Positions 2,234-58,349 of a DNA stretch of 64,000 bases are shown piece after piece. Source of the DNA: a virus; the IMG/VR virus record IMGVR_UViG_3300045988_143165, positions 3,410 to 67,409 of that record; one strand, written 5' to 3'. The notes beneath the pieces were generated by a model. The model was given only the letters and a program-made list of their open reading frames with translations, made no database searches and was not told where the DNA came from. The first letter of the stretch is position 1. Every line of letters begins with the position of its first letter. The translations under genes were made by a program, and so were the position numbers.

Positions 2234-2959
2234 TTATCCTTTAATTCGTTCCTGTGCAATATTGTAGTATTGTTGGTCTATTTCTATACCTATGAATTGT
2301 CGGTTAAGCTCTTTACAAGCAATGCCTGTACTACCTATACCCATAAATGGGTCTAATACTATACCGTTTTGTTGAGAAGAATTGTCAATCAATATTTTCA
2401 TCAACTCAACAGGCTTTTCAGTATCGTGTAAATTCTTTCCGTCAATACTTTTTAATTTGATGTTTGGTATAGATAAAATATCGCTCGTTCCACAATGGTT
2501 AATTCTTACGCCACGACCTTTGCGGAAAAATAATATGTATTCAAACTGTGACATATAGAATTGACCCATTATTTTGTTTCCTTTATCCCATATCAAAGAC
2601 TTAATAAAATGGAAACCATAGGGCTTAACGCCATTGTCTTTTTCTTCCTCTGTCGTTAAATCAGTAAAAGTGTTCAACATATGAATAAGATTGATATGAT
2701 TAGTCATTACATAACAATGACTGCCATCTTTTAATATTCTATAAAACTCCGATGCATATTCTGAACAATCAATGTTATTATGCTTAAATACTTGACCTTG
2801 CATATTGATTTTCTTTTGTAACATACCACCTGAATTTCCGGCGTTCCCACGAGAAGTAATTTTATAAGGTGGGTCTGTTACAATTAAATCAATGCTCTCG
2901 TTTGGTATTTTACTTAATTCTGTTAAACACTCTCCACATATAAGATTTGGCAGGGGGTG
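2234..2959 (-). CDS. DNA N6/N4 methyltransferase (beta class). The N-terminal DPPY motif is only reachable through a -1 shift at a C5 tract
   Basis: Motif I DPFMGIGSTG lies near the C-terminus. The catalytic LIVTDPPY motif lies upstream of the first ATG (2824) in the same frame, bounded by a stop at 2960-2962. A TTG start with RBS aaaggaag becomes in-frame if the C5 run (plus-strand G5 at 2954-2958) were C6. Confidence 0.65.
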   Translation of the reverse strand, partial: HPLPNLICGECLTELSKIPNESIDLIVTDPPYKITSRGNAGNSGGMLQKKINMQGQVFKHNNIDCSEYASEFYRILKDGSHCYVMTNHINLIHMLNTFTDLTTEEEKDNGVKPYGFHFIKSLIWDKGNKIMGQFYMSQFEYILFFRKGRGVRINHCGTSDILSIPNIKLKSIDGKNLHDTEKPVELMKILIDNSSQQNGIVLDPFMGIGSTGIACKELNRQFIGIEIDQQYYNIAQERIKG

Positions 2960-2969
2960 TTAATTTTAA

Positions 2970-4169
2970 TCAATATATTGTACTTCCTTTGTTGGTTCTC
3001 TTTATATCTTCTGAAAATTTTGTATTAGATAAATATATATTATCGAAATGTTTTAACAAATCTTGAATTTTACAATTACCTGCAATTTCATTATCCGTAT
3101 AATTCAAATGAGTAATCATAACAGAAGTTTTTGTTCCGCTGATTTTTTCTCTTGCTCTTTGTATATCAGCTTTCACTCTATTGATAAACTCATCATAATC
3201 AAACATTCCATACCTTATTGTTTGCTGGTAATCGTTATAACAGTTTGTAAGGTCAGTTATATCTTTATTTATATCCGACTTATCACATTCTGTTGGTAAT
3301 GTTCCTGCTCCGTGTCTGGTAAAATAAGACCTTGTAATATAACAAATTTCAACATCGCAATCAAAATCATTAACTCTTTGAATGGGTGTATAAGAAGTAG
3401 TATTACTTGCTGTGATGTATGGCAATGCTTTTAGATTATTCTCATCAAGTTCAAGACCTTGCGCACCCTCAAATATAATGGTATTATACTTATTTCGGAT
3501 TCTATCGAAATCACACATAAAAGTTATATATTGCATTTCTCTTAAATCACTAACGAAATGTTCAATTAACCCTTTAGACTTTATCAGCTCTTGATATTCT
3601 TGTGGAATTTCTGTTATTCCGTATTCAAATAATTTTTTAGGTAAATAAACATTTGCTATATTATGTAGATAATCTACAACATCTTTATCGTTCATATGAG
3701 ATAGTTGGTTATAATCTAATGCAAAAACACCATCATCATACCTTTTTTGTGTTTCCCAAATACCATAACCACAAGAACCGTGTCTTTTATTCTCTCTATG
3801 TATTTCAACAATTTGATTGATAAACATATCATACATAGTGCTTACTCTACATTTAGGAGAAATCATACATATAGGTTTGATGCCATATTTTTTAAGCTCA
3901 TTATATTCTTGAATGAAGATTGCAGGATTAACCATAAAGTTTTGGTCAAAGTATGTATGAGCATTATCAAATGTGCCACTTCCAAAATGATGGAAAATAT
4001 GCCTTGTGCCATCTTTAAGTTCGACAGTATGACCTCGTTGACATCCTCCATTAAATAAAACATTTAAGCACTTATTTTTCGCGGATTGAGAGAAAAAATG
4101 TGTTGCCAATCCTTTTCCTTCATCTCCATAATTACTACCTATTACTACTTTGACCTTAACTTTACTCAT
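2970..4169 (-). CDS. adenylosuccinate synthetase family protein (PurA-like; PurZ candidate)
   Basis: P-loop GDEGKGL and GGCQRGHT, FEGAQG, TASNTTS, TRHGAG motifs align with E. coli PurA along the whole length. Confidence 0.8.
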   Translation of the reverse strand: MSKVKVKVVIGSNYGDEGKGLATHFFSQSAKNKCLNVLFNGGCQRGHTVELKDGTRHIFHHFGSGTFDNAHTYFDQNFMVNPAIFIQEYNELKKYGIKPICMISPKCRVSTMYDMFINQIVEIHRENKRHGSCGYGIWETQKRYDDGVFALDYNQLSHMNDKDVVDYLHNIANVYLPKKLFEYGITEIPQEYQELIKSKGLIEHFVSDLREMQYITFMCDFDRIRNKYNTIIFEGAQGLELDENNLKALPYITASNTTSYTPIQRVNDFDCDVEICYITRSYFTRHGAGTLPTECDKSDINKDITDLTNCYNDYQQTIRYGMFDYDEFINRVKADIQRAREKISGTKTSVMITHLNYTDNEIAGNCKIQDLLKHFDNIYLSNTKFSEDIKRTNKGSTIY

Positions 4170-8001: not shown

Positions 8002-8418
8002 TTATACAAATTGTAAGTATATTGGTTTTGGATTGAGCATTGCATTTCCATCTCCGAGAACATATTGGTCGATTTTCGGCTTAATAACTTCTTGAATATA
8101 TGTTTCTCTTATTCGAGAATCCATAAAAATAACTTGTGAACAAATTTCAGAAATCATATTCTCTTTGGTTATTAGATTGATAATGCTACCATTGAAAAAC
8201 TCAATCTTAATTTGCTCACCTTCAGCAATAGATTTTATCTCACAGTCATAAGTCACCTTCTTATAGTATTCAATGATTTCGTCAAGCATTGTTTTAGCAG
8301 AAACCATATCCTCAATATAAAAAGTAATTATGTAGTTCGATAAGGTAATGCACCTATCGAGGAATTTATAACCTCGAATTTTCGATTGTTCAAATATTGA
8401 CATTATCTTGACTCCCAC
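8002..8418 (-). CDS. hypothetical protein
   Basis: ORF in the operon. No motif recognised. Confidence 0.35.
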   Translation of the reverse strand: MGVKIMSIFEQSKIRGYKFLDRCITLSNYIITFYIEDMVSAKTMLDEIIEYYKKVTYDCEIKSIAEGEQIKIEFFNGSIINLITKENMISEICSQVIFMDSRIRETYIQEVIKPKIDQYVLGDGNAMLNPKPIYLQFV

Positions 8419-9440
8419 GGAAATTCAGAATGACCAAAGTGACCAAACTTTGCAGTATCATTAAACTTAAATGTTCCATCTATCAAATGCAAATCTTCGA
8501 TAATCCTTTTTGGTGTGCATTCATCATAGAAACAGTCCGGTATATCAATTACTTCCTTGTTTGTCTTTGCATAAATTCCAAGAGGCTTATCCATACCTAT
8601 TGCATAAGAAATCTGAATTTCGCACCAGTTGACATCGGGTAATGTATCAAGACATTCGATTGCAAGCTGTCTTGCCTTATACGCTGCCGAACGGTCAACT
8701 TTTGTTGGGTCTTTACCAGAGAATGCACCACCTCCGACATTTGCAAAAGATTGATAATTGTCAACTACAATTTTTCTGCCGGTTAGACCTGCATCTCCAT
8801 CAAAACCACCGATTAAGAATTTACCCGTCGGATTGATGTGAAACTCTCTGATTGCAATTCCATAATTTGAACAAAGTGTCTCACAGTAGTCAGTAAGAAT
8901 TTTATCTGTCTCTGCTCGATTTGTTTCTTTGTTCTGATATGAGATAATAAAATCCTTTATATACTCCAATTTGTTATTTTCATCATAGAACCCTGTTATC
9001 TGTGCCTTGCCATCAGGAAGAAATCTGTCATCAATTTTGACAAGTCTATCATAGAATGCCGATAAATCTTGAAGGATAGCCATTGCCGTAGGAATGTAAT
9101 CCACTGTATCTCTGCACGCATACCCGAACATCATTCCTTGGTCTCCAGCACCTCCAGCATCAACGCCCTGCGCAATATCAGGTGACTGTTTACCGATGTT
9201 ATCAATAACTTCATATTTATTTGGGTCATATCCAACATCACGAAGAGCTTCTTTAACAATGTTTGTTACATTGACTAATGCTCTTGAAGTTACTTCACCT
9301 GTTACGAATATTTTTCCTTTGCCGCCGACAGTTTCAATGCCGCATCTGCTATGTTTATCCTGCTTCAAAAAAGCATCAAGAAGTGCATCACTTATTTGGT
9401 CGCAAACTTTGTCAGGGATGTCCTCTAAAAACAATTTCAT
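8403..9440 (-). CDS. metK: S-adenosylmethionine synthetase
   Basis: GAGDQGMMFGYA and GGGAFSGKDPTKVDRSAAY signatures. The N-terminus MKLFLEDIPDKVCDQISD aligns to the E. coli MetK start, so ATG at 9440 is preferred over the track's TTG at 9467. Confidence 0.85.
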   Translation of the reverse strand: MKLFLEDIPDKVCDQISDALLDAFLKQDKHSRCGIETVGGKGKIFVTGEVTSRALVNVTNIVKEALRDVGYDPNKYEVIDNIGKQSPDIAQGVDAGGAGDQGMMFGYACRDTVDYIPTAMAILQDLSAFYDRLVKIDDRFLPDGKAQITGFYDENNKLEYIKDFIISYQNKETNRAETDKILTDYCETLCSNYGIAIREFHINPTGKFLIGGFDGDAGLTGRKIVVDNYQSFANVGGGAFSGKDPTKVDRSAAYKARQLAIECLDTLPDVNWCEIQISYAIGMDKPLGIYAKTNKEVIDIPDCFYDECTPKRIIEDLHLIDGTFKFNDTAKFGHFGHSEFPWESR

Positions 9441-9615
9441 TGCTGTAATAGAAAGACATATAATCAACTCCTTTCATTTTCAACGAAGCGCCAAGTATAT
9501 CCACCTGCGCTTTACGCTCATATTTATTATTACAAACATCGCTTATTCGTTTATAATTTGTTCCTGTTATTAGTTAAACACCTAACAGATTTTCTTCGAT
9601 AAGTTGATTATTCAT

Positions 9616-10626: not shown

Positions 10627-10962
10627 TTACTGAAATAATTTTCTGCAATATCCCATTTGAGCTAAATATCTTTTGAAATAAATATTTATACCATTGTGTG
10701 ATTTCTCTTTGAATGTAATAATTTTATACGGGAATCTATCAAGTGATACTACTAAATACTCAAAACCATTTATTGCAATATTCACACTACCATCTGTATT
10801 AAAATAAGCCAAAATAGGATGTTTAATTGAATGTTTTATATTTAGGTTGGGGCATCTTTTGTCAATCATTTCTTTTGCGTGTTTTGTTAATATGTAATTA
10901 TTCGCAATCTCGTTAAGCTCATTATGTTTTAATAATTGTCCTCTATGTCGAATCTGAATCAT
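10627..10962 (-). CDS. hypothetical protein (start uncertain)
   Basis: ORF overlapping the 3' end of the Dam-like methyltransferase in another frame. An internal Met was chosen as start. Confidence 0.3.
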   Translation of the reverse strand: MIQIRHRGQLLKHNELNEIANNYILTKHAKEMIDKRCPNLNIKHSIKHPILAYFNTDGSVNIAINGFEYLVVSLDRFPYKIITFKEKSHNGINIYFKRYLAQMGYCRKLFQ

Positions 10963-11478
10963 ATGTAACCTTCTTTTCAACAGTACATAATGTGTCATTC
11001 TTGCTGCCGCCGTGGGCAACAACAAGAATTTCAATTATTTCAAATCCTCTTTTCTTGCCAACACCATTTGTATTCCAACCAAAAGAAAGACAAACTCCAT
11101 TCGGTTTAAGAATACGAGCAATCTCATCAAGATGTTTTGCTCTCCAAGATGCTTTTGTATGTTCTGCGGTTACTTTGATACCAACACCCTCATAGCATTC
11201 TTTTACTTGACGAAGCGAATATGGTGGGTCATATAAAACCACATCAGCAGATTCACTTTCTATCAACTTCAAAAAGTCTAAAGCATCTAAATGATATGTA
11301 GTATCAAATTTTGGATTTAAGTCATTAGTAATCGTTCCTATATGACAACCATTTGCAAATGGGTCAACAATTACTTTGTTTTTATCCCCCTGGCGGTGTA
11401 TCTCACCACAAGTTCTTTTATTGGAGGAATACTAAATGTTTTGCAGTTAGGCATAGCCCATACTCTGTTTACAATCAT
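10943..11478 (-). CDS. phage Dam-like N6-adenine DNA methyltransferase. Needs a -1 shift at a G5 tract to join the N-terminal ATG to the DPPY frame
   Basis: The frame carrying VIVDPFANG...VVLYDPPYS...ILKPNGVCLSFGW has no Met anywhere (163 codons from stop to stop). The upstream frame has RBS gagggtataaaATG with MIVNRVWAMPNC.. (W-x-x-P like the family N-terminus). The two frames fuse if the G5 at 11387-11391 (minus sense) were G6. Confidence 0.55.
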
Positions 11479-12319: not shown

Positions 12320-14269
12320 TTAGAAATTTCCCATTATATATTCAAGTTCAGAAATAATCTTTGTTCCATACTTCTCAGCAGCTTTATTTTTAGAGCTGCC
12401 AGAAGTCTTATCATTTGTAATTAAATATTGTGTTTTAGAAGTCACGGAAGAAACTACCGTTCCACCTTTTGCTTCAATATCATACACAAGAGCATTACGG
12501 TTGTCAAATTCAACTAATTTTCCTGTAATACAAAATGTTTTGTCTTTGTATCTTTGGCTTAAATCGGATTTTTGTGGTTTTTTAATGTGAAGAATATTAA
12601 CAAGAGGTTGAATATCTTCATAATTATCTACAACATATGAATTGATATTATCACTTGTTGCCTGTCCGATTTCCTGCAATACGCTCCAATCAAATCCTGA
12701 CATTGCAAAATTGATAAACTCTTGAAATGTATTTTCTACTCCTGTTTCTTCACAATATTCAGCTATCGTTCTTGCTGCTGATTTACCAATTCCCGGAATA
12801 CCAATAGCAATAATAATATTGATTAACTGACATTTTTTACTAACTTCAATAGCATTGATAATCTTATCAATGCTTGATTCACCAAAACCTTTTGCTTTTG
12901 CAATTTCATTACGATAATCTTTAAGGTGATAAAGGCTCTCAAAACTTGTAATATAACCCATATCCATAAGGGAGCGTAACCTTTCTTCTGATATGCCTAC
13001 AATATTCATTGCTTCCCTTGTAGCAAAGTTTGAAATTTTATCGTGAAGAATTGCTTTACAATGTCTGTTTGTGCAGTAAAGCATTTCTCTACCGTTATCA
13101 TTCTTTATCGTCACAGGATTTCCACAAGACGGGCATACTGAAGGTATTTGGTATGTATTACTTCTTGTAAGATTTTGTGTGATTTTCGGGATAATCTGAT
13201 TTGCTTTAACAACGGTTACAATGTCACCAATACCAAGTTCAAGCTCTTTGATAATACTTACATTGTTAAGAGTAGCACGAGATACAGTAGTTCCATCAAT
13301 CTCGACAGGCTCAAAAATTGCAACAGGATTTACAAGACCAGTTCTGCTCGTTGACCACTCAATGTTAAGCAAAACCGTTTCGTTTTCCTCTTGATAGAAT
13401 TTATATGCAAGAGAATGTCTTGGGTGATGTCCTGTTCTACCAAGAGAATTTCCATACTCAATATCATCAAACATTCCTACTATTCCATCAATCGGAATCT
13501 GTTTGGTTTCGCATTCATCTTTAATCCATTCAATAGTATTAAAACTATTGGTATAATAAGGTACTACATCAAAACCAAGATTTGATAGAAAATCAAAACC
13601 TTCAGAATGATACTGAATACCAACATTTTCTGCTTCGTGAAGCCTCCAAGCTATAAACTTGATATTCCGTTTTGCAGCAATTTCACTATTCAACTGACGT
13701 ACTGAACCACTTACAAGATTTCGTGGATTTTTATATTTTGTATTTTCTCTTGCTTTAATACGTTCAAATTCATCATAAGTAATAATACACTCGCCATCAA
13801 TTTCGAGTTTACCCTTAAACGGAATTTCTGTTGGAAGATTAGAAAATACTTTTGCATTGTGGGTAATATCTTCTCCGGTTTCACCGTCACCACGACTTTC
13901 GGCTCTTATGAGTTTGCCATTGTCATATGTCAAGGAGCAAGTAAGCCCATCAAGTTTTGCCATAATAAGAAAATCTTTGTTACCGAAATACTTAATAAAC
14001 TCATCAATATCCGTTGTCTTACCAAGAGATAATAAAGGATGGCTATGTTTGACTTTCTGTAACTGACTCAAGCTCATATAACCAACAGATTGTGTCGGTG
14101 AATTTGAGAATATACATCCTGTCTCTCGTTCTAAAACAATTAGTTTATCAAAGAGTTCATCATACTCTCTGTCAGAAATGATACTATTATTATTGTTATA
14201 GTATTCATCTCTGTACTTATTTAACTTTTTGACGAGGGATTTAACTTCCTCTACTCTATTTTCATTCAT
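12320..14269 (-). CDS. ligA: NAD+-dependent DNA ligase
   Basis: Adenylation motif KLDG, an OB/zinc/HhH architecture and a C-terminal BRCT-like segment. 649 aa, typical LigA length. Confidence 0.9.
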   Translation of the reverse strand: MNENRVEEVKSLVKKLNKYRDEYYNNNNSIISDREYDELFDKLIVLERETGCIFSNSPTQSVGYMSLSQLQKVKHSHPLLSLGKTTDIDEFIKYFGNKDFLIMAKLDGLTCSLTYDNGKLIRAESRGDGETGEDITHNAKVFSNLPTEIPFKGKLEIDGECIITYDEFERIKARENTKYKNPRNLVSGSVRQLNSEIAAKRNIKFIAWRLHEAENVGIQYHSEGFDFLSNLGFDVVPYYTNSFNTIEWIKDECETKQIPIDGIVGMFDDIEYGNSLGRTGHHPRHSLAYKFYQEENETVLLNIEWSTSRTGLVNPVAIFEPVEIDGTTVSRATLNNVSIIKELELGIGDIVTVVKANQIIPKITQNLTRSNTYQIPSVCPSCGNPVTIKNDNGREMLYCTNRHCKAILHDKISNFATREAMNIVGISEERLRSLMDMGYITSFESLYHLKDYRNEIAKAKGFGESSIDKIINAIEVSKKCQLINIIIAIGIPGIGKSAARTIAEYCEETGVENTFQEFINFAMSGFDWSVLQEIGQATSDNINSYVVDNYEDIQPLVNILHIKKPQKSDLSQRYKDKTFCITGKLVEFDNRNALVYDIEAKGGTVVSSVTSKTQYLITNDKTSGSSKNKAAEKYGTKIISELEYIMGNF

Positions 14270-14293: not shown

Positions 14294-14578
14294 TTAATTG
14301 TTCCCATTGCTCACTACTATCGGTTCCCCCGAATATAAGTCATCTTTTACCTTAATAACTTCCTCAACCTCAACAGCTTGGTATTCATTGCCTATTTTAC
14401 GATGCCAACTTCTTTCAAAACCAGCAATAGCCTTTTTCTCGCTTGAATAAGTCTTAATCTGTGTATCACCTATATCATCAATAGGCTTGAAATAATATTG
14501 CCTCGCAAGTCCACACATTATATGTGTACCATTACGGACGATTATGTATCTTTTTCTGGTAATAACTTTACTCATCAT
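14294..14578 (-). CDS. hypothetical protein
   Basis: ORF. No motif recognised. Confidence 0.35.
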   Translation of the reverse strand: MMSKVITRKRYIIVRNGTHIMCGLARQYYFKPIDDIGDTQIKTYSSEKKAIAGFERSWHRKIGNEYQAVEVEEVIKVKDDLYSGEPIVVSNGNN

Positions 14579-15306
14579 AATCCTCCCACGGAATCCTTAC
14601 CTTATATTTACCCTCAAAATATGTTGTACCTACACCGCATTCTTTGCACCATTCATTAAGGTAATCCTGTAATTCAATGATTTTTTTGCTTGGAATATCA
14701 TAGAATGCATCCTCATACAAATCCTCTGTTGCATTTTCAACTATTCCTTGTGCATCAATGTTAATTTTAACAGGCTCGGTTGACCATACAAATTCAGGTC
14801 TTATATCTGAAGGTTCGTGTTCTTCTGCCCAATACTCAAAGAAATCATCCCAATCCATAAAGAAACCGTCATTTCTTCCATACTCGTCAGAAAAGAAATA
14901 TTCCATATTTTTAATCATTTCGGATGGTGCAAGTTCTGCATCATTTAATTCTTTGGCTCTCCGTTGATAAAATTGCTTTCTGTCTAACTCCCTTTGTTGT
15001 TCACAATTATGTTTTGTATATCCACGCTCAATGATACCACCGCAAAGATTACAACGGTGGATAATACCATTAAAACAATGTGGGCAAAAAAGTCAAAATC
15101 TGATGAGAGTAAGGAAACATTCTGCTTTTGTCAGGGTCATCACTTAATCCATAAGGATTTTCACGAATGACAAGTCCTGTGCCGTGACAAACTTGGCAAA
15201 TTTCCTCATCTCCGTGTAAATCCTTTTTCAAATGAACATTAACAAGTTTCTCAACATAATTCTTGTCTGCAACATATTCTGTTTTAGGTTTTACAAATTC
15301 ACTCAT
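14568..15306 (-). CDS. zinc-finger protein with four CxxCxG motifs (DnaJ-type Zn-finger-like), apparently requiring a -1 frameshift at U_UUU_UUG
   Basis: The upstream frame (MSEFVKPK...CQVCHGTG...) stops at 15070. The downstream frame is open from 15092 with 58 start-less codons containing CPHCFNG and CNLCGG, then CKECGVG. The slippery heptamer T TTT TTG (plus-strand A6 at 15086-15091) links the two frames. Confidence 0.5.
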
Positions 15307-16130: not shown

Positions 16131-16718
16131 TTACATCACCTCTTTTATAGACTCAATGTATTCTTCCGAAGCGTAAAATGGAACACTCATTAACTCTCTC
16201 CGAATTTCGTCATACATCTTGTGTAATTTTGGATTAACCCATTTTTGCCATTCTCTGCGATTATCGGCAACCATTAAGGCTCTTACTTGTGTAGCCGAAA
16301 TAGGTATTTTTCCACGGCTTACAATAATTTCTGTAACATCCTTAATATCATCTGGGTCAAACCATCGAGACCGGCTTTCATCATTACCGTATATCATAAG
16401 TTCAGGCGTCTTATAAATATAACGGTCAATATTATCAAGTAAGTATCGACCCCATTCAGGTCTAATATCATTTTCATTCGTTAAATCAGAAATACCCTTA
16501 ATAATAATTGAGCCATCATCACCGTAAATAGCTCTCAACATTCTTATTCTTGTGTCAATGTTTAGTGGATTTCTTTCTGTTCCACATTCCTGCGAAGAAC
16601 CGACCAAAATTAACACCCTATCACACAGTTTTAACGCCGTATCAACAAGTGATTCGTGACCGATATGAAAAGTTTGAAATCTGCCACAAATAACACCTAC
16701 ATCATATGGTTTGCTCAT
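16131..16718 (-). CDS. nadM: nicotinamide-nucleotide adenylyltransferase (NadM/NadR-type NMNAT)
   Basis: ICGRFQTFHIGH, the (H/T)xGH motif, and a C-terminal ISATQVR (ISSTxxR) motif. Confidence 0.75.
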   Translation of the reverse strand: MSKPYDVGVICGRFQTFHIGHESLVDTALKLCDRVLILVGSSQECGTERNPLNIDTRIRMLRAIYGDDGSIIIKGISDLTNENDIRPEWGRYLLDNIDRYIYKTPELMIYGNDESRSRWFDPDDIKDVTEIIVSRGKIPISATQVRALMVADNRREWQKWVNPKLHKMYDEIRRELMSVPFYASEEYIESIKEVM

Positions 16719-16732
16719 ATTTTATCTCCTTA

Positions 16733-17023
16733 TCAGAAAAAGTTGAATAATAAACTACCCTCAGAAGTTCTTATATCAACGATAGCATTTTCAATTTTAG
16801 TTGTTTCTTTTGTCTCTTTAACCTTTTGGTTGGAGCAAGCGGCAAATGTAAAACACATTATAATACCCATAAAGAAAGCAATAATCTTTCTCCATAAAGG
16901 CATTTTCTTTATTTTAATAGTTTGCTCTTTAGCCTTTGCCTCACAACTCGGACAAACCATTCTGCCTTCGGGAACATAAGCTCCACAACTCACACATCTA
17001 TCATACATTTTCTTTATCCTCAC
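16733..17023 (-). CDS. zinc-ribbon membrane protein
   Basis: CVSCG...CPSCE followed by a TM helix. Confidence 0.4.
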   Translation of the reverse strand: MRIKKMYDRCVSCGAYVPEGRMVCPSCEAKAKEQTIKIKKMPLWRKIIAFFMGIIMCFTFAACSNQKVKETKETTKIENAIVDIRTSEGSLLFNFF

Positions 17024-17579
17024 TATGAATTATTTCTTCAAATGTTCTCGGCGTATAATTCATATAAGGAATCATACAACCAACATTAAACATATTGCAG
17101 GGCTTGTCGTAGAGAGCAACCATTTCATATTTAACTCTCTGCATCATATTCCACTCAAATGAATTATGAACGTGTCCGTAAAAATGGTAAGCACCATAAT
17201 AGTGTCGGTTAAAACAAGGTATAGGGTAGTGGGATAAAATAATGTCATTGCCGTTAATTTTGATTTCTTTGTAATCAACGATTTCAATGAACAAGTCTCT
17301 GATATTCTTGCTTTTAAGTAGTTTTCTATCGTGGTTTCCTATGCAAAGATGTTTGTTTCCATTTAATTGACTGAATACCTCAATAGTCTTTGTTGTGTTA
17401 CCCCAACAAATATCTCCGAGAATCCATACATCATCGTCAAATCCGACAGTTCCATTCCATCGTCTTATAAGTTCGGTATCGTGTTCTTCAATCGTCTTAA
17501 ATGGTCTATTGTCAAATGAGAGACAATTTTCGTGGCTGAAATGCTAATGCAAGTCAGCTATAAAATACATCTGACTCAT
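17001..17579 (-). CDS. calcineurin-like metallophosphoesterase interrupted by an in-frame TAG (pseudogene or readthrough)
   Basis: RBS GGAGGT plus ATG gives MSQMYFIADLH, then TAG (17544-17546), then HFSHEN..GDICWG..GNHD..GHVHN in the same frame with no internal start. Deleting the 6 nt tagcat restores the family motif DLHFSHEN. Confidence 0.55.
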
Positions 17580-23353: not shown

Positions 23354-23583
23354 TAATCAAAAATTCTCTTATAATCACAATGTCTCATATCGCCTTTATA
23401 TTTGCGTGCTTTCTTGCTTGATATTTTTTTAAGATACTTTTTATATTTCCTGCCACCACAAGAATATTTTATATATCTTCTTTTTTTCTCGTCATACCAA
23501 GCACCAGCACCATATGAATTCTTGGTTTCATTATAAAGTTTTTTAAGTCTGTGATTTCTTTCCTGACTTCTGCGATAACTCAT
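23335..23583 (-). CDS. small basic protein
   Basis: ORF rich in K/R/Y. Confidence 0.3.
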   Translation of the reverse strand: MSYRRSQERNHRLKKLYNETKNSYGAGAWYDEKKRRYIKYSCGGRKYKKYLKKISSKKARKYKGDMRHCDYKRIFDYWWELF

Positions 23584-24394
23584 ATTGCCCTCCCAAGTAT
23601 ATTAAATCATTGACATACTTTCGACCATCTTCCTTAAAAATAGGAGTTTCATTATCAATAATCCATTTACTTCTCCCTGTTGTTTCATCAATCTTACGAA
23701 TACAACAACTACCTCTCTTGTATTTCGTAGGACAATTATTCCAGTTGACACCTTTTTCGAGCATAAGCATATCCTGAATATCGCTTATAGATTTTTTATC
23801 TAACTGCTTATGAGAAAAATATGCTCTACCAACCATCTGAATAGAATTTCTGGTTGCATCATTCTGTCTCCAAAGCAAATTATTGCAAACCTCATCTTTT
23901 GGAATATTAAATACACGGGCATCAAACATTGCCCCTTTATCTATTGCTCTATTAAGTACCTCAATATATTCTGATTCGGGTGGAATATCTATATCTTGAA
24001 GTTCTAAAACCGAATTTATATAATCATTGGCTCTTTTATTGAAAAATTTATTAAAAGCCATTGTTGCCATACTGGCTGCAACGCTCGCACATTTTTGGAT
24101 ATTATAATCAAACCAAGCAGAAGTATCTATATTTCTGTAATCAACAAGAACAAGAGTAATCTCATCGGATTGTGTATATCCAAGAACGCAACCCTGAATA
24201 TTCTCACAAAGATACTTCATTGTCTCCTGCATAGTTTTAGAAAGCACATCATCAAAAGGTTTTTGAAAACCTCTTGTGAATGTATGAAATGCTTTACCGT
24301 CAATTCGTATAATAACTGGGGTTCGAGTTGTCAAATAGTGTCTCGACACAAATTCATACTTTTTCATTCTTTTATCAAATGCACTGTATTTCAT
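23543..24394 (-). CDS. Thg1-like protein (tRNA-His guanylyltransferase family, 3'-5' nucleotidyltransferase)
   Basis: N-terminal KYEFVSRHYL...VIIRIDGKAFHTFT matches the Thg1 family (FEYVR...RLDGRNFH). Confidence 0.65.
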   Translation of the reverse strand: MKYSAFDKRMKKYEFVSRHYLTTRTPVIIRIDGKAFHTFTRGFQKPFDDVLSKTMQETMKYLCENIQGCVLGYTQSDEITLVLVDYRNIDTSAWFDYNIQKCASVAASMATMAFNKFFNKRANDYINSVLELQDIDIPPESEYIEVLNRAIDKGAMFDARVFNIPKDEVCNNLLWRQNDATRNSIQMVGRAYFSHKQLDKKSISDIQDMLMLEKGVNWNNCPTKYKRGSCCIRKIDETTGRSKWIIDNETPIFKEDGRKYVNDLIYLGGQYELSQKSGKKSQT

Positions 24395-34992: not shown

Positions 34993-35760
34993 CTAATTTG
35001 AATGATATTCAAAGCACGGCATTAACTGTAACTTGAACATATTTTTTTCGTGCATTTCGTTAATTTTTGCCTTTACTTTTTCGTCATCACATATTCCAGT
35101 TCTTATATACTTATCAAGAACTGCATAGGTGAAGCCAAAACTATCTTCATCTGTCTTTCCACAAAGTCCATCTGTCGGAGTTTTGTGTGCAAGCTCATTA
35201 GGTAAGCCACAATCCTCTGCTATGGCAATTACTTCTGTTTTTGTAAGCATTGCAAGAGGACTAAAATCTCCTGCTGCATCACCGTATCGTGTAGAATAAC
35301 CGATATAATCTTCCGAAAGATTGCAGGTATTCATTACTCTGCCATTCATTGATTGAGATACAGCATATAATGTAGCCATTCTCAAACGAGCAGGAAGATT
35401 GATTTTAGTCTGTTCTGAAATATCAATAGGATAATAACCGTCAAAATTTGGGTCATAGTAATCATCAATATTACAGATTATTCCATTGTATGCTTGTTCA
35501 ATATTAACCTCTGTATATTTGATACCAAGATGTGAAACCAACTTAATAGCAGAATCAATATCTTTCTGCACGCCATTTGGCATAAGCACACCAAATACCC
35601 TGTCTTTCCCAAGTGCTTCAACGCACAAAGCAGCAACCGTGCTTGAGTCTATGCCACCTGAAATTCCGATAATAGCATTACAGTCTTTTCCATTTTTTTT
35701 AAATATATCTCTTATCCATTCAACAACATCATTTTTGACTTTTATTACATCAAATGTCAT
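34993..35760 (-). CDS. nadE: NH3-dependent NAD+ synthetase
   Basis: PP-loop GISGGIDSS. About 255 aa, typical NadE size. Distal part of the NAD+ salvage gene set. Confidence 0.8.
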   Translation of the reverse strand: MTFDVIKVKNDVVEWIRDIFKKNGKDCNAIIGISGGIDSSTVAALCVEALGKDRVFGVLMPNGVQKDIDSAIKLVSHLGIKYTEVNIEQAYNGIICNIDDYYDPNFDGYYPIDISEQTKINLPARLRMATLYAVSQSMNGRVMNTCNLSEDYIGYSTRYGDAAGDFSPLAMLTKTEVIAIAEDCGLPNELAHKTPTDGLCGKTDEDSFGFTYAVLDKYIRTGICDDEKVKAKINEMHEKNMFKLQLMPCFEYHSN

Positions 35761-37220
35761 TAGAACTTACCTCCGTGCAATGTATTTCTTACTTCCGAAA
35801 GAGAGTATTCTTTTATCATCTTACCATCACTGAATATAGGCTGGAGCATATTATTCTCGTTATACGCCTCTGCCCAGGTATGACCATCTGTAAATGTGAG
35901 GTCTGAATTTACAATACAACAACCTTTTTGTGATTTCTTAAATCCACCGTCTTTTGGATTCTTAAAAATCGGCACAGATTTTCCGTTAATCTCACAATAT
36001 GTTGCTTTAATGCAAGAACTAAAGGTATCACGGGTAAAAGGCTTTAGAATACCATCTTCCTCAATGCACTGGAATGAGAAAGAACCAACTCCAAGCGCAA
36101 CGTTTGAGCAAGCAAAACCATTCTGCATAAGGATTTCATAGATTTGCTCACATCTCTGTACCGTAATACTATCACCATAAATAGCCTTAACGTGTGGGTC
36201 AAGTACTTTATATCCCTTGCTGTTTACTGTTCCGCCAAAAATATCCCACAGTTTGAATACTGTCCTTGTAACAACCTCAACACAATCACCGGAATCTCCA
36301 CGCATAAGCATACAACCATTGTGTGACATAATTTCAGGTTTTAATTCAGGAAGAACATTATCAATTATGTTCCAGTAATCATATGAATCAAGCACAGCGG
36401 AAAACGAATTATTGGGATAAATTTCCGCTAAAAGTCTGCGAAGAAGCGTAATTTCATCACCATCGACTGCATAATTACTACACATAACTGAATGCTCTGT
36501 GCTGGGTGAACCAAATGCCACAGGTTCTTTTGTGCAATCGCAATTATACATTGCCTCAAGATAGGGAACTGTCGGAACGGTTGCAGTATTCAAAAATGAC
36601 ATACACCAACCTGCACCAGCTTTAATTGCTGATTCTGTGCATTCCTCGCCTCTGAAATCAAATGCTCCGAGTGCTTTTGACTTTGGAACATCATCATCAC
36701 AAGTCAGGTCGTAATATTTATTTACAATCTGACGATATGTATATCCGACTGTTGCAGCCAACATAGGATGCCAGCTTTCAGCAGAAATAAGGCTTTCAAG
36801 AGCTTGTGGAAGCCAAGCGAAATCAGAATGTGTATTTGTAATTCCAAACATCGGAACGTGCATCGGTACAAGTGTTCCTTCAGGAAGTGCCACAATCTTA
36901 ATCGGAAGATAGCCGAGTTTGTGAAGTTCTTCAATCTTCTTAATACCGTAAACATTCTCTCCAAGAGAAGCATCCATAATTCTCTTATAATTTGCGATAA
37001 CCTCGTCAAAAGGTTTATTGAAAAATTCTTCGTTGAAATAATCAATAAGGTATGTTTTTATAAAACCCTGCAACCCAAACATAACAACCTTATCCCATCT
37101 CTTAACTCTCGTCATTCTCGGAGTAAAATAAGATACTGATTTTGTGATTCCTTTGGGCAACATTTCTGCGTGTACTGCCTTATAAAAATCAATAAGCAAC
37201 ATAGGATTTATCTTTCTCAT
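35760..37220 (-). CDS. nadV: nicotinamide phosphoribosyltransferase (NAMPT/NadV family)
   Basis: Aligns with human NAMPT along its length (IDFYKAVH/TDSYKVTH, LPIKIVALPEG, VLDSYDYWN/VSDSYDIYN, LMRGDSGD/IIRPDSGN, NSKGYKVL). RBS taaGGAGaattgaaATG at MRKINP. Confidence 0.85.
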   Translation of the reverse strand: MRKINPMLLIDFYKAVHAEMLPKGITKSVSYFTPRMTRVKRWDKVVMFGLQGFIKTYLIDYFNEEFFNKPFDEVIANYKRIMDASLGENVYGIKKIEELHKLGYLPIKIVALPEGTLVPMHVPMFGITNTHSDFAWLPQALESLISAESWHPMLAATVGYTYRQIVNKYYDLTCDDDVPKSKALGAFDFRGEECTESAIKAGAGWCMSFLNTATVPTVPYLEAMYNCDCTKEPVAFGSPSTEHSVMCSNYAVDGDEITLLRRLLAEIYPNNSFSAVLDSYDYWNIIDNVLPELKPEIMSHNGCMLMRGDSGDCVEVVTRTVFKLWDIFGGTVNSKGYKVLDPHVKAIYGDSITVQRCEQIYEILMQNGFACSNVALGVGSFSFQCIEEDGILKPFTRDTFSSCIKATYCEINGKSVPIFKNPKDGGFKKSQKGCCIVNSDLTFTDGHTWAEAYNENNMLQPIFSDGKMIKEYSLSEVRNTLHGGKF

Positions 37221-37231
37221 TTCAATTCTCC

Positions 37232-38368
37232 TTATACTGCATAATGAATGTTCTTGGTAGGACATCTTGAAAAACTCAAATATTCAACCTCTGTTGACCT
37301 TGCACAATCAACAACCTCTTTACAATCATCATCCTGTGAATATTTGATTTGAATATTTTCAGGACTAATACAATAGAGAAGTTTTTCAACATTATATTCT
37401 GCATCCGATACATTGAAATCAACTCTTACAAAATCATTACCTTTCTTATCTTCAAGCCATAAATAATCTTCATAATCTCCGAACATATCCAAACCGTAGT
37501 TTTTGTGCTGTGCTGTGAGTCCATTCTTATAATGAAGAACAATATTATATCTTAAATAATTATTAAGATTTACAATGTTCAAATCTTTAATAGCTTCCTT
37601 AAATGAAATTCCTGTGTTAATTTCAAATGCGATAGCTCTTAAACAGTCATAATTCAAATTTACTTTTCTTGAAAAAGCGATAATAGAATCAATCTCACCG
37701 TAATACTGTTCATCAAGTTTATCAATAAGATATTCCCGAACTTCCGTTGGTGTCGGATAATCAAATCTGAAATGATAATGAAATCTTCCCGGTCTGTTTA
37801 TTAGATAATTGTTTAACTTACCGAGGTCATTACAAGTAATAACAAACAATTTTTTGCCACCAGAAACACCATCAAATAAGCTCAAAAGATTTGCCTGTGG
37901 AGAAGCCTCTCCATCTCCTGCCTTTACTTCTCCAAATGTCTTATCGAACTCATCAAACAAAACCATAACCTCTTGGTCAATGCTTTCAATATATGATGCA
38001 ATGCCAGGAATATACCTATCTACAACAATAAGTGGAATATCTTTCTTCTGTGCTTCAATAGATAATAGCCTTGCAAATAAAGATTTGCCAATACCCTTAT
38101 CTCCACTTAAAATAACGCCAAGATTTCTGTTAAATTTGTCAAATGAGTTCAAAACCTTATTTACTTTTTCGATATGTACTCCGTAAACTTTATCTTCTTT
38201 TACTTCAATATCGACATACTTTTCAAGATAAAATCCCTTAAATTGACTAAATCTCACAACATAACTTTGTGTTGGAAATTTTTCATATGTTTTTAATGTA
38301 TCATCAAAAACCTCATATGAATTTCCAGAACTAATAACCTTCACTTTATTTTTCCCCCTAATCAACAT
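37232..38368 (-). CDS. AAA+ ATPase
   Basis: Walker A GDKGIGKS, Walker B VLFDEFD, sensor ITCN, RPGRF arginine-finger region. Embedded between nadV and prs. Confidence 0.6.
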   Translation of the reverse strand: MLIRGKNKVKVISSGNSYEVFDDTLKTYEKFPTQSYVVRFSQFKGFYLEKYVDIEVKEDKVYGVHIEKVNKVLNSFDKFNRNLGVILSGDKGIGKSLFARLLSIEAQKKDIPLIVVDRYIPGIASYIESIDQEVMVLFDEFDKTFGEVKAGDGEASPQANLLSLFDGVSGGKKLFVITCNDLGKLNNYLINRPGRFHYHFRFDYPTPTEVREYLIDKLDEQYYGEIDSIIAFSRKVNLNYDCLRAIAFEINTGISFKEAIKDLNIVNLNNYLRYNIVLHYKNGLTAQHKNYGLDMFGDYEDYLWLEDKKGNDFVRVDFNVSDAEYNVEKLLYCISPENIQIKYSQDDDCKEVVDCARSTEVEYLSFSRCPTKNIHYAV

Positions 38369-55286: not shown

Positions 55287-58200
55287 TTAATCGTTTGTGA
55301 TTTTTTGATGACCCCATAAGATTTTAATATTGCCTTTTTCGTCCTTTCCCTTTGTCATTAACACCTTTAGCATCATTTCGTTAATTCCAAACTTACTATA
55401 TAGGTCATCATCTTCGACTTTTTCATCTTTCATAAAAAGGTTCAATTTTTCTTTACACAGAATCATTTTTAACAGATTTCCTTCTATACTGTTTTCATAA
55501 GTTACAAAATATATTTCCTTCCATTCCGTAGAAGTGAATCTGATAAATCGAAAATAAAACTGACTCATACTTGCATTATTCCAATGCAATTCTGGAATAA
55601 TACACTTATTTACAAAGTCAATATTCATACTGCACGATAATGATTGCTGTGTGCAAATTAAAATACCATTTCTTGTTTTTTTCAGTTCATTACAAATTGA
55701 TATTCTTTTCTTTAATGTCGTGTTATTTCCAGTAATAACAAACAATGGTCTATTCGGATATAATTTCTTAATTGCTGTGGCATAAGAATAAACATTGTCA
55801 ACGTGGCGAACACCTATTACAATTCTTTCATTATTCCACTTTTCAATCATCTCAAATACTTTTTTATATTTACTCGACAATTCAGTTGAAGAATATTCTT
55901 TGAATGTGTGAGGACAAGCACATATTTTAAGCAAAAGAGTTAATTGATTTAAGATTCTCAACATAGCATCTTTTCTGCTGTTTCCTGTTGTCTTAAATAG
56001 ATATTGCATTTTATAAAATTCCTCTATTGCTATTGAATATAGTGCTTCTTCTTCCGGTGTGAATTTACAAGTGACATTTTTGATTTCGTAAATTTTCTTG
56101 CCTGTGACTTCTTCAAATTTCCTTGTGATTATCGTTTTGTCAAGCATTTTTTTTAATGCTTCTGAATTATATATATCTTGTGTCTTTTTAACAACTCCAA
56201 ATACAGTGATTTTATCTGGCAGAAAACATTTGCTGAATAATGAATATCCTTTCTTATATGCTGGGAATGGATTATTATATTGTTCATTAAAATCGGAAAT
56301 AATTTCGCCTTTGGTTTCAGAATCCTTATTTTTATCCACAACATAAACAGTTTCACATTCACACAACATATTAACGCTATTATTGTAAAGCAATTCAAGT
56401 TGAGGGTAAATTTCACAAATATTGTTTCGTGTGCTTGTTCCGGTCATACATACTTTGTATTTAATTTTTCTAAAACAACTTAATACTGCTTTTGTTCTCT
56501 TGCTATTTTGATTTGATATGCTATCACTTTCATCCATTACAAGCATAACTTTTTGAGATTGCATTTTAACAAATTTCTTAATATGTTTTTGTAAAGTATT
56601 GAGTATATCAAGAGTAATTAAAACAATTTGTCCTTTTTTAATCTTCTGAATATCCGAATAACTATTGATTCTTATATAGTCATAATGGTAAGCCTCAAGG
56701 CAATCTTGCCAGTTGTTATTTATCGCGATAGCAGTAGAGACTACAAAAGCATTTCTGATATTGTTGTGTTGGAATCTATAATCCATTTGAACTATGCCGG
56801 CAAAAGTTTTTCCGCTGCCCTGTTCCCACTGCAAGAAAACATATCTTTTCTGCAAAAGTTTATTTATATCTTCTTTTTGCTTTTCCGTCAACTTATAAGT
56901 TTCATTTTTGTTATAATCGTGGATAGAAAAATTATCAAGAAATTTCATTATATCAGAATCTTGTTCCATATCCTTAAATGATACTTCATTACTTTGAAAA
57001 TCTTTAATTTTCTTATCAATAAGTTTTTCATACTTTTTGTTTTCAAATTGATATGAACATTGACCTGAAACAATATCGTTAATAGATACAAATTTTCCAA
57101 AATCTCCATATTGTTTATTCAATAAGATTTTCATTTTACGGCTATATGGTTTTAACTTTAAGCCATAATCAGTTTTTACTAATTCAATCTTATCAATTTC
57201 AACTTTATGTTCAGATTTGATAACTTTTCTTAAATAGGCAAGTACCTTATTAGGCGTGATTTTCCTCTTTTCCCATTCTTCATACTTCATTCCTTCTGGC
57301 ATTTTCTGTGTTTGGTATTTGTAAAGATACTCGCTGCATTTTGCATATTTATCCTGTAAAGCAGGATTTCTCTTAATATCAAACATCATTTTTTTAACTT
57401 TATATTCAAATTGTTTTTGTTCTTGAGTCTTGCCATCGTGTAAATTTTCAAAAAACAACTGATTTTTCAACTTATTTCTCAAAGTGATTGCAGGCTTTAT
57501 ATAATTTTCATAAATGAAATTTGAAGATTCTATATTAAGACAATCAATTACAATGTTTTTCGTGCTAAATTTTACATCTAAAATATGTTCACTTTTCTTT
57601 TGGAAAAACATAATTTTAGTAGAAAAATTAGTAACTCCGAGATTTTTGAATGTATCTGAAGGAATGTCAAACTGACATAATAGATTCCATTCTTTTGAAA
57701 CTTCTTCTATCATTCCTCTATCGGAAAAATCATCCGCCAGAAAACTTGATGGAACTACCAGAGCCATTAAACCACCCGGTTTAATATTCTCTGATGCTTT
57801 AATTGTGTAGTATAGTTGTGAAACATAAGTCGTATCTCCAATTTGCCACTTCAAATTAAATGGCGGATTTCCGACAATAACATCTGCTCTTATTTCAGGA
57901 TTATATACTCTTATATCTGAACACCGGATATTTGCTTTTGGGTATAAATATTTTGCAACCTTATAAGATTTCATATCAATTTCACAACCAAAGAAATTAC
58001 TTTCCTGGGGAACAGAATTTGCAAAAGCTCCGTGACCACAAGTTAAATCCATAATTATATCGAATTTGTCCGGTTTCAAACATTGTATTACAAAATCGGT
58101 AATGGCATACGGTGTAAAAAACTGTCCTTGTTCAAATTCTTTTTTGGCTTCTGAATAATCATAATAATTTTCATAGTTTGAAAATTTTTCTCCACTTAAT

Positions 58201-58349
58201 CCACCGTTTCCGGTGTATGAGCTTGCTATGTCAGTTGCAGTTATTCCGTTTTCTTCCGCTATTCCGTTGTCAATCAAATAAAGAATTTTGTTGTTAATCT
58301 CTGCCCGTTTATCTTGTGGAATTATCAAATTTTCAACAATATATTTCAT
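55287..58349 (-). CDS. N6-adenine DNA methyltransferase fused to an SF2 helicase (DarB-like anti-restriction candidate)
   Basis: N-terminal GQFFTPYAI, DLTCGHGAF and VIVGNPPF (gamma-class N6-MTase). C-terminal helicase motifs WEQGSGKT (I), LVMDESDS (II) and MTGTSTRNN (III). 1020 aa. Confidence 0.75.
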   Translation of the reverse strand: MKYIVENLIIPQDKRAEINNKILYLIDNGIAEENGITATDIASSYTGNGGLSGEKFSNYENYYDYSEAKKEFEQGQFFTPYAITDFVIQCLKPDKFDIIMDLTCGHGAFANSVPQESNFFGCEIDMKSYKVAKYLYPKANIRCSDIRVYNPEIRADVIVGNPPFNLKWQIGDTTYVSQLYYTIKASENIKPGGLMALVVPSSFLADDFSDRGMIEEVSKEWNLLCQFDIPSDTFKNLGVTNFSTKIMFFQKKSEHILDVKFSTKNIVIDCLNIESSNFIYENYIKPAITLRNKLKNQLFFENLHDGKTQEQKQFEYKVKKMMFDIKRNPALQDKYAKCSEYLYKYQTQKMPEGMKYEEWEKRKITPNKVLAYLRKVIKSEHKVEIDKIELVKTDYGLKLKPYSRKMKILLNKQYGDFGKFVSINDIVSGQCSYQFENKKYEKLIDKKIKDFQSNEVSFKDMEQDSDIMKFLDNFSIHDYNKNETYKLTEKQKEDINKLLQKRYVFLQWEQGSGKTFAGIVQMDYRFQHNNIRNAFVVSTAIAINNNWQDCLEAYHYDYIRINSYSDIQKIKKGQIVLITLDILNTLQKHIKKFVKMQSQKVMLVMDESDSISNQNSKRTKAVLSCFRKIKYKVCMTGTSTRNNICEIYPQLELLYNNSVNMLCECETVYVVDKNKDSETKGEIISDFNEQYNNPFPAYKKGYSLFSKCFLPDKITVFGVVKKTQDIYNSEALKKMLDKTIITRKFEEVTGKKIYEIKNVTCKFTPEEEALYSIAIEEFYKMQYLFKTTGNSRKDAMLRILNQLTLLLKICACPHTFKEYSSTELSSKYKKVFEMIEKWNNERIVIGVRHVDNVYSYATAIKKLYPNRPLFVITGNNTTLKKRISICNELKKTRNGILICTQQSLSCSMNIDFVNKCIIPELHWNNASMSQFYFRFIRFTSTEWKEIYFVTYENSIEGNLLKMILCKEKLNLFMKDEKVEDDDLYSKFGINEMMLKVLMTKGKDEKGNIKILWGHQKITND

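Follow-up and report, generated by a model that had tools for sequence, protein, structure and literature searches.

Layout of the locus

The reading frames surrounding an interrupted gene were analyzed in the window, i.e. the whole stretch of 64,000 nucleotides of viral DNA (G+C 34%), in which the genes studied here lie on the minus strand. The upstream fragment, ORF1, runs from ATG 15306 to TAA 15072..15070 and encodes 78 aa, a sequence matched exactly by protein P0135. Its residues 1-73 are the N-terminus of a 245-aa family protein and include CQVCHGTG (residues 37-44), the first CxxCxGxG motif; its last five residues, LPTLF, are out-of-frame read-through. Close to its end lies a homopolymer of six T (T6, 15091..15086) followed by G at 15085, which together form the heptamer T_TTT_TTG (15091..15085), in phase with ORF1 (ACT TTT TTG) and followed by the ORF1 stop 12 nt further on. 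A second open stretch of 174 codons extends from 15092 to 14568. Its first 58 codons contain neither ATG, GTG nor TTG (first start at codon 58) and encode CPHCFNG and CNLCGG, after which the frame enters a called ORF at 14918..14568 (116 aa, beginning at an internal Met, protein P0121) that carries CKECGVG and corresponds approximately to the C-terminal domain of the family protein. From TGC 15086 onwards this frame reads family residues 74-245, namely the CPHC, CNLC and HNC ligands, then a linker helix, and last the alpha/beta domain at the C-terminus. A hairpin with a 6-bp stem (CCACCG-N12-CGGTGG, 15060..15037) is located 24 nt downstream of the heptamer. The fold of the 81-nt region has an energy of -21.9 kcal/mol, against -14.6 +/- 3.2 kcal/mol in shuffled sequences (z = -2.3). 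The heptamer, the start-less frame with its two motifs and the hairpin had all been described by the initial annotation, and all were found.

The direction of the shift differs from the one first proposed. The initial annotation had placed the continuation in the -1 frame; translations from 15306, 15305 and 15304 show that it is open in the +1 frame (equivalently -2) relative to ORF1. The true -1 frame reads FFAHIVLMVLSTVVIFAVVSLSVDIQNIIVNNKGS (FFAHIVLMV...NNKGS), stops after 35 codons, and has no CxxC motif and no homology. Upstream, the +1 frame is closed by TGA 15095..15093, so that any shift that retains CPHC must fall inside the T run. Three other ways of joining or explaining the two halves were considered and rejected: a -2 slip on the heptamer, for which either tRNA would re-pair poorly; a +1 slip at UUU_UAA (15075..15070), by which the conserved CPHC motif would be skipped; and stop-codon reassignment as the cause of the split, the problem being one of frame. 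General recoding of TAG, TGA or TAA is not visible in the window. Deletion of one T gives a 245-aa product, of which residue 73 is the last before the break and residue 74 the first after it. The corresponding trans-frame peptide, which is also the wild-type peptide, is SHQILTFCPHCFNGIIHR, while the termination product ends in ...ILTFLPTLF.

The genomic context is that of a large gut phage or phage-like element, with source contigs of 130-185 kb and a dense block of auxiliary genes, all on the minus strand (2970..4169, 8403..9467, 12320..14269, 16131..16718, 23543..24394, 35760..37265 and 55287..58349). Their products are a 399-aa adenylosuccinate-synthetase-like protein (PurA/PurZ-like), a SAM synthetase, an NAD-dependent DNA ligase, an NMNAT-like cytidylyltransferase, Thg1, NAMPT and a 1020-aa fusion of an N6-methylase with an SNF2 helicase. 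The PurA/PurZ-like protein raises the question of a 2-aminoadenine genome.

The 245-residue protein family

The fused product of 245 aa has 141 matches (120 listed) in a collection of 5.8 billion proteins. The best one, P0001, is also 245 aa long and is 97% identical over 100% of the length; more than 100 further proteins, among the matches listed, are uninterrupted, have about 240-260 aa and are covered at 98-100%. Full-length homologues thus bear out the view that each ORF is one half of a single protein. In an alignment of 53 members, C37, C40, G42, C74, C77 and G80 are invariant, and C85, C88, G89 and C101 are nearly so, with H or C at position 99 preceding C101. Judging from this alignment, the family has eight putative zinc ligands within residues 37-101, the fourth conserved pair being (H/C)xC at 99-101. 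AlphaFold2, run on the family alignment, predicts, with a pLDDT of 90, that the N-terminal domain is rich in beta structure, that a long helix spans residues 102-122 and that the C-terminal domain is alpha/beta. The zinc-binding domain is predicted only in the fused product, and the frame break cuts through it.

Four CxxCxG repeats had been expected in the fusion, and four motifs are indeed there, but the last of them, CKECG in the C-terminal part, is not conserved in the family, other members having WKEKYGR or WCASTGVG. Nor are the motifs evenly spaced as had been supposed: they begin at residues 37, 74, 85 and 222 of the fused product. The proposed DnaJ-type zinc-finger topology is not confirmed either, the first motif alone fitting the pattern. 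Some likeness to the DnaJ cysteine-rich domain (PF00684) and to the double zinc ribbon (DZR, PF12773) exists, in that several CxxC pairs are carried at the tips of beta-hairpins and that the first motif here is an exact CxxCxGxG. Thirteen of the 53 members give a weak match to DZR. No member matches PF00684 at E <= 0.01, however, and the window protein scores 8.8 bits against Pfam DnaJ_CXXCXGXG, below the cut-off of 32.7. The protein further differs from DnaJ by its fourth ligand pair, (H/C)xC, and by having no J domain, and from both DnaJ and DZR by a C-terminal domain for which no significant match to a known fold was obtained.

Searches of the fused protein against Pfam and PHROGs gave nothing significant, a PDB profile search gave nothing, and GenBank phages were matched neither by blastn with the DNA nor by tblastn with the fused protein. 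The comparison thus defines a widespread, uncharacterised gut-phage family, in which a predicted zinc domain of eight Cys/His ligands at the N-terminus is followed by an alpha/beta domain at the C-terminus. Selection on the gene has historically been purifying (pS about 0.11, pN about 0.02). In one of the 53 members the C-terminal domain (residues ~130-245) weakly matches the ArdA antirestriction protein (PF07275, E = 0.0034), and an acidic, aromatic-rich stretch, FFSDEYG.NDGYF.DWDEFFEYW, is conserved in this domain. A role of the C-terminal domain in anti-restriction or as a DNA mimic is speculative.

Several disrupted forms of the 245-aa gene other than the split one are also present in public assemblies (P0114, P0136, P0137 and P0140). 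P0114 is a deletion chimera in which the N-terminus of a metallophosphoesterase is joined to the last 86 residues of the 245-aa protein; in P0137 (6 contigs) and P0140 a truncation or frameshift lies elsewhere in the gene. The gene seems to be dispensable and the region plastic.

Alleles of the T tract and origin of the frame break

Two IMG/VR contigs (L001 and L002) and two metagenome contigs (L007 and L008), 92-99% identical to the window in nucleotide sequence, carry GAC or GGA followed by T5 and G, and in all four the gene is a single ORF. In the alignments to these relatives, T6 versus T5 is the sole difference at the junction. The heptamer was therefore made by the insertion; it is not conserved, is not needed in the relatives, and does not qualify as the recoding site for which it had been taken. 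A longer tract, T7, occurs in L004 and L005, while a further locus (L003) shares T6 with the window. An exact scan of IMG/VR for the T6 pattern gave no match, and a gapped scan of JGI metagenome contigs returned two T5 alleles only. The initial annotation had named an error or variant in the length of the T tract, with T7 as the true state, as what would speak against recoding. A length variant is essentially what is seen; the intact state is T5, not T7.

We interpret the locus as a real frameshift allele of a conserved phage gene, null or hypomorphic, with a probability of about 0.7. The reading frame is lost precisely within a mononucleotide run, and close relatives differ in the length of this run, as is typical of homopolymer indels. 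The gain of one T (T5 to T6 at 15091..15086) would have put the last 172 codons of the 245-aa gene out of frame, and most likely arose by slipped-strand mispairing during replication of the phage DNA. In phage genomes, polymerase slippage makes homopolymers of at least six nucleotides hot spots of +/-1 frameshifts, with strongly elevated rates, and slipped-strand indels in homopolymers are the most common class of frameshift mutation (PMC12633550). Translation from ATG 15306 to TAA 15070 would then yield a 78-aa fragment having only the first of the four zinc-ligand pairs, in which the domain could not form; the remainder of the gene would be silent, or expressed at the low background of spontaneous slippage. 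The U_UUU_UUG sequence would be a by-product of the insertion and not an evolved recoding signal. The break must be recent, since the last 112 C-terminal residues of the window allele are those of an intact protein, P0126, found on 36 contigs. The downstream frame has no secondary lesions, a state that is also expected if it is still translated.

A second broken allele, GA-T7-GTC, is represented by proteins P0138 and P0134 at loci L004 and L005, which are 100% identical to each other over 3,993 bp and may come from one sample; the accession for the T7 allele is SAMEA14100733 / ERR11564137. Its background resembles L001 and is separated from the window by three flanking SNPs. Comparison of the two backgrounds suggests that the T7 allele is an independent hit, with probably recurrent slippage at the same tract.

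We infer a null or hypomorphic allele whose extra T is a genuine part of the phage DNA. The competing view, by which the phage itself has T5 and the consensus gained its sixth T as an artefact of assembly or sequencing, is unlikely. A frameshift that is validated by homologues but seen in a single genome is often an error (PMC3711429, for singletons). The break here is at a homopolymer, and the downstream frame is pristine and encodes a protein sequence identical to that of an intact allele, all of which would fit an error. The window is, however, 100% identical over 20,351 bp to the ENA scaffold ZEEV15-1_SAMEA3664618_METAG-scaffold_58 (129.8 kb), and the exact split pair of 78 and 116 aa is recorded by three pipelines, in ENA, Logan and JGI/IMG, on contigs of up to 184.6 kb, although these records may stem from the same reads and would then not be independent. 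The same kind of lesion is present in the T7 allele on another background. Over about 6 kb aligned to L001 and L002, T6 is the sole indel of a length other than a multiple of three in a clearly homologous coding stretch, the remaining ones being intergenic, frame-preserving, or part of a divergent patch at 16730-16830. Homopolymer errors are therefore not rife in the assembly. The scaffold label ZEEV15-1 presumably denotes a short-read (Illumina) cohort, and a run of six T is short for a consensus error on Illumina, which counts against an artefact.

It is decidedly improbable that the allele is rescued, either by tRNA-Phe slipping +1 on UUU_U (15090..15087), with UGC as the next codon, or by loss of a U by RNA polymerase, the strain then making both the 78-aa and the 245-aa products. 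The re-pairing itself would be perfect, from UUU (15090..15088) to UUU (15089..15087), and would give the exact family sequence LTFCPHC; the lesion-free downstream frame, the double occurrence of an allele of this kind and a moderately stable structure after the site are also consistent with rescue. Against this, the site is not conserved, and the relatives have T5 and one ORF, so that nothing has evolved to use a shift. The 0-frame A-site codon, UUG, is a sense codon, neither a stop nor a known hungry codon, and no Shine-Dalgarno-like stimulator is found upstream. The hairpin is just conserved coding sequence: it sits in the codons for HRCNLCGG, a conserved motif, and the intact T5 alleles have it unchanged. 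As to slippage during transcription, programmed realignment usually uses runs of at least eight nucleotides (PMC3711429), and the long conserved run that it would call for is not seen here, the tract being T6 in the window, T7 in L004 and T5, in frame, in the relatives.

That the gene has become two genes, with ORF2 initiating at Met 14918 and expressing the C-terminal domain alone, is highly improbable. Met 14918 is near the domain boundary of the AlphaFold model, past the linker helix 102-122, and a 116-aa ORF is proposed there by gene callers. Such a start would nevertheless leave 51 codons untranslated, including the conserved CPHC, CNLC and HNC ligands, and the arrangement occurs in no diverged relative. 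Unlike the neighbouring genes, ATG 14918 has no Shine-Dalgarno-like sequence in the 20 nt upstream of it.

Programmed -1 frameshifting on U_UUU_UUG, with stimulation by the hairpin, has next to no probability as the means of fusing the two ORFs: an X_XXY_YYZ heptamer in phase with ORF1 and a hairpin downstream of it are indeed present, but the -1 frame ends after 35 codons without encoding anything homologous, the heptamer is absent in the relatives, the hairpin is 24 nt away whereas the usual spacer between heptamer and structure is 5-9 nt, and TTTTTTG is rarer than chance in the window (24 occurrences against 51 +/- 7 expected from shuffles).

A frameshift allele is therefore the most likely explanation, an assembly error is less likely, and low-level rescue by a +1 slip or in transcription is the least likely of these three. 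The appropriate annotation is a single 245-aa gene, a pseudogene or variant allele that bears a one-base frameshift; the locus should be entered neither as two small ORFs nor as a recoding site. More generally, a heptamer of textbook appearance can arise from the very insertion that breaks a gene, and the direction of the shift should be checked before -1 frameshifting is invoked.

Other homopolymer tracts and comparison with known systems

A scan of the window for long open frames without a start gave three further candidates, all on the minus strand. The first (2237..2959) is an N6_N4 methyltransferase (PF01555, Pfam E = 3e-34) which has no start in its own frame. The only start, TTG 2973 (followed by ATT AAA ATT AAC ACC CCC...), is in another frame, and the break at a C5 run (plus-strand GGGGG 2953..2957) needs a shift of -1. 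Among its relatives (L089-L168), poly-C runs of differing length are found just after the start codon. The gene is in frame with C6 in L090 and L096 and with C5 in L156; it is out of frame with C5 in the window and L089, TC5 in L091, C7 in L092 and L132, C9 in L095 and C10 in L093. From this series, the poly-C looks like a hypervariable tract of the phase-variation type.

The second candidate (11476..10943) resembles a DNA methyltransferase, with the motifs DPFAN...DPPY, and is split at C_AGG_GGG, where a -1 shift is needed; its G5 run corresponds to plus-strand CCCCC 11386..11390. Loci L009, L013/14, L016-19 and L022 were compared with L010-12 and L020. The CAGGGGG frame break is common to five diverged lineages, one of which (L009) needs +1. 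In the broken lineages an intact, conserved ORF of 144-162 codons follows the break, and the N-terminal 30 codons are conserved as well. The gene is in frame in 37 of 81 sequences (80 loci and the window), the motif test being blank in about 38 others. This break is a candidate for conserved recoding or for phase variation. The initial annotation had counted three -1 sites in the window, all needing the same direction of shift. If the breaks at ~2955 and ~11388 are the other two sites, this uniformity is lost, as they need -1 and the T tract +1.

In the third candidate, a metallophosphoesterase-like gene (17579..17001), the interruption is an in-frame TAG (17546..17544) and no frameshift is present. 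The product reads MSQMYFIADLH*HFSHENC..., where the asterisk marks the TAG, which lies inside the metal-binding DxH region; the chimeric P0114 lacks the two extra codons and has IADLHFSHENC. All six lineages that were compared retain the TAG, even though positions close to it carry substitutions. The gene has no further stops or indels, and its pN/pS is about 0.15-0.3.

Length variation is also seen in the 94-aa ORF that comes next downstream of the split gene (14294..14578, minus strand, weak WGR match). Its run at 14326..14330 (plus-strand CCCCC) is G5 in the window and G9 in L007, a gain of 4 nt which shifts the last ~10 codons, and L001, L002 and L004 have 3-nt in-frame indels beside it. 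Intergenic A/T runs vary among relatives as well. The window has six G/C runs of at least five nucleotides, and at three of them there is a frame break or length polymorphism. These data point to homopolymer-length polymorphism as a recurrent source of on/off differences in genes between strains of this phage lineage, and the polymorphisms in the methyltransferase genes are more interesting leads than the site studied here.

A broader reading would be that several hypermutable homopolymers in this gut-phage lineage reversibly switch accessory genes, with T6 and T7 as OFF states, perhaps partly rescued by a +1 slip. The tracts involved may be the T tract, the poly-C of the first methyltransferase, the G5 of the second and the G5/G9 run of the 94-aa ORF. 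We regard this as improbable. If true, it would amount to a phage contingency-locus system, in which a +1 slip of tRNA-Phe might regenerate the exact wild-type peptide.

Recoding is recognised by a frame break and a slip motif that are conserved across homologues (PMC3711429). With the known -1 sites (A_AAA_AAG of E. coli dnaX and the G/GT of phage tail-chaperone genes), the present site shares an in-phase X_XXY_YYZ heptamer and a downstream stem-loop. It differs from them by its closed -1 frame, its lack of conservation, the 24-nt spacer and the need for a +1 shift. The likeness to the +1 site of prfB (CUU_UGA_C) is that the P-site codon re-pairs perfectly one base downstream and that the product would be full-length, whereas here the A-site codon is neither a stop nor slow, an upstream SD-like stimulator is missing, the arrangement is not conserved and the homologues are in frame. 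The T6 allele is thus an ordinary frameshifted allele and not a recoding signal. Its closest counterparts are the homopolymer contingency loci of phages, such as the A-runs of T2 agt and T4 rIIA (Gomez, Barrick & Waters 2025 preprint, PMC12633550), where a change of +/-1 in a run likewise inactivates an accessory ORF. As at those loci, the tract varies in length (here T5, T6 and T7) and has probably been hit more than once, a likeness known here from comparison of sequences; the difference is that the ancestral tract, T5, is below their threshold of at least six nucleotides.
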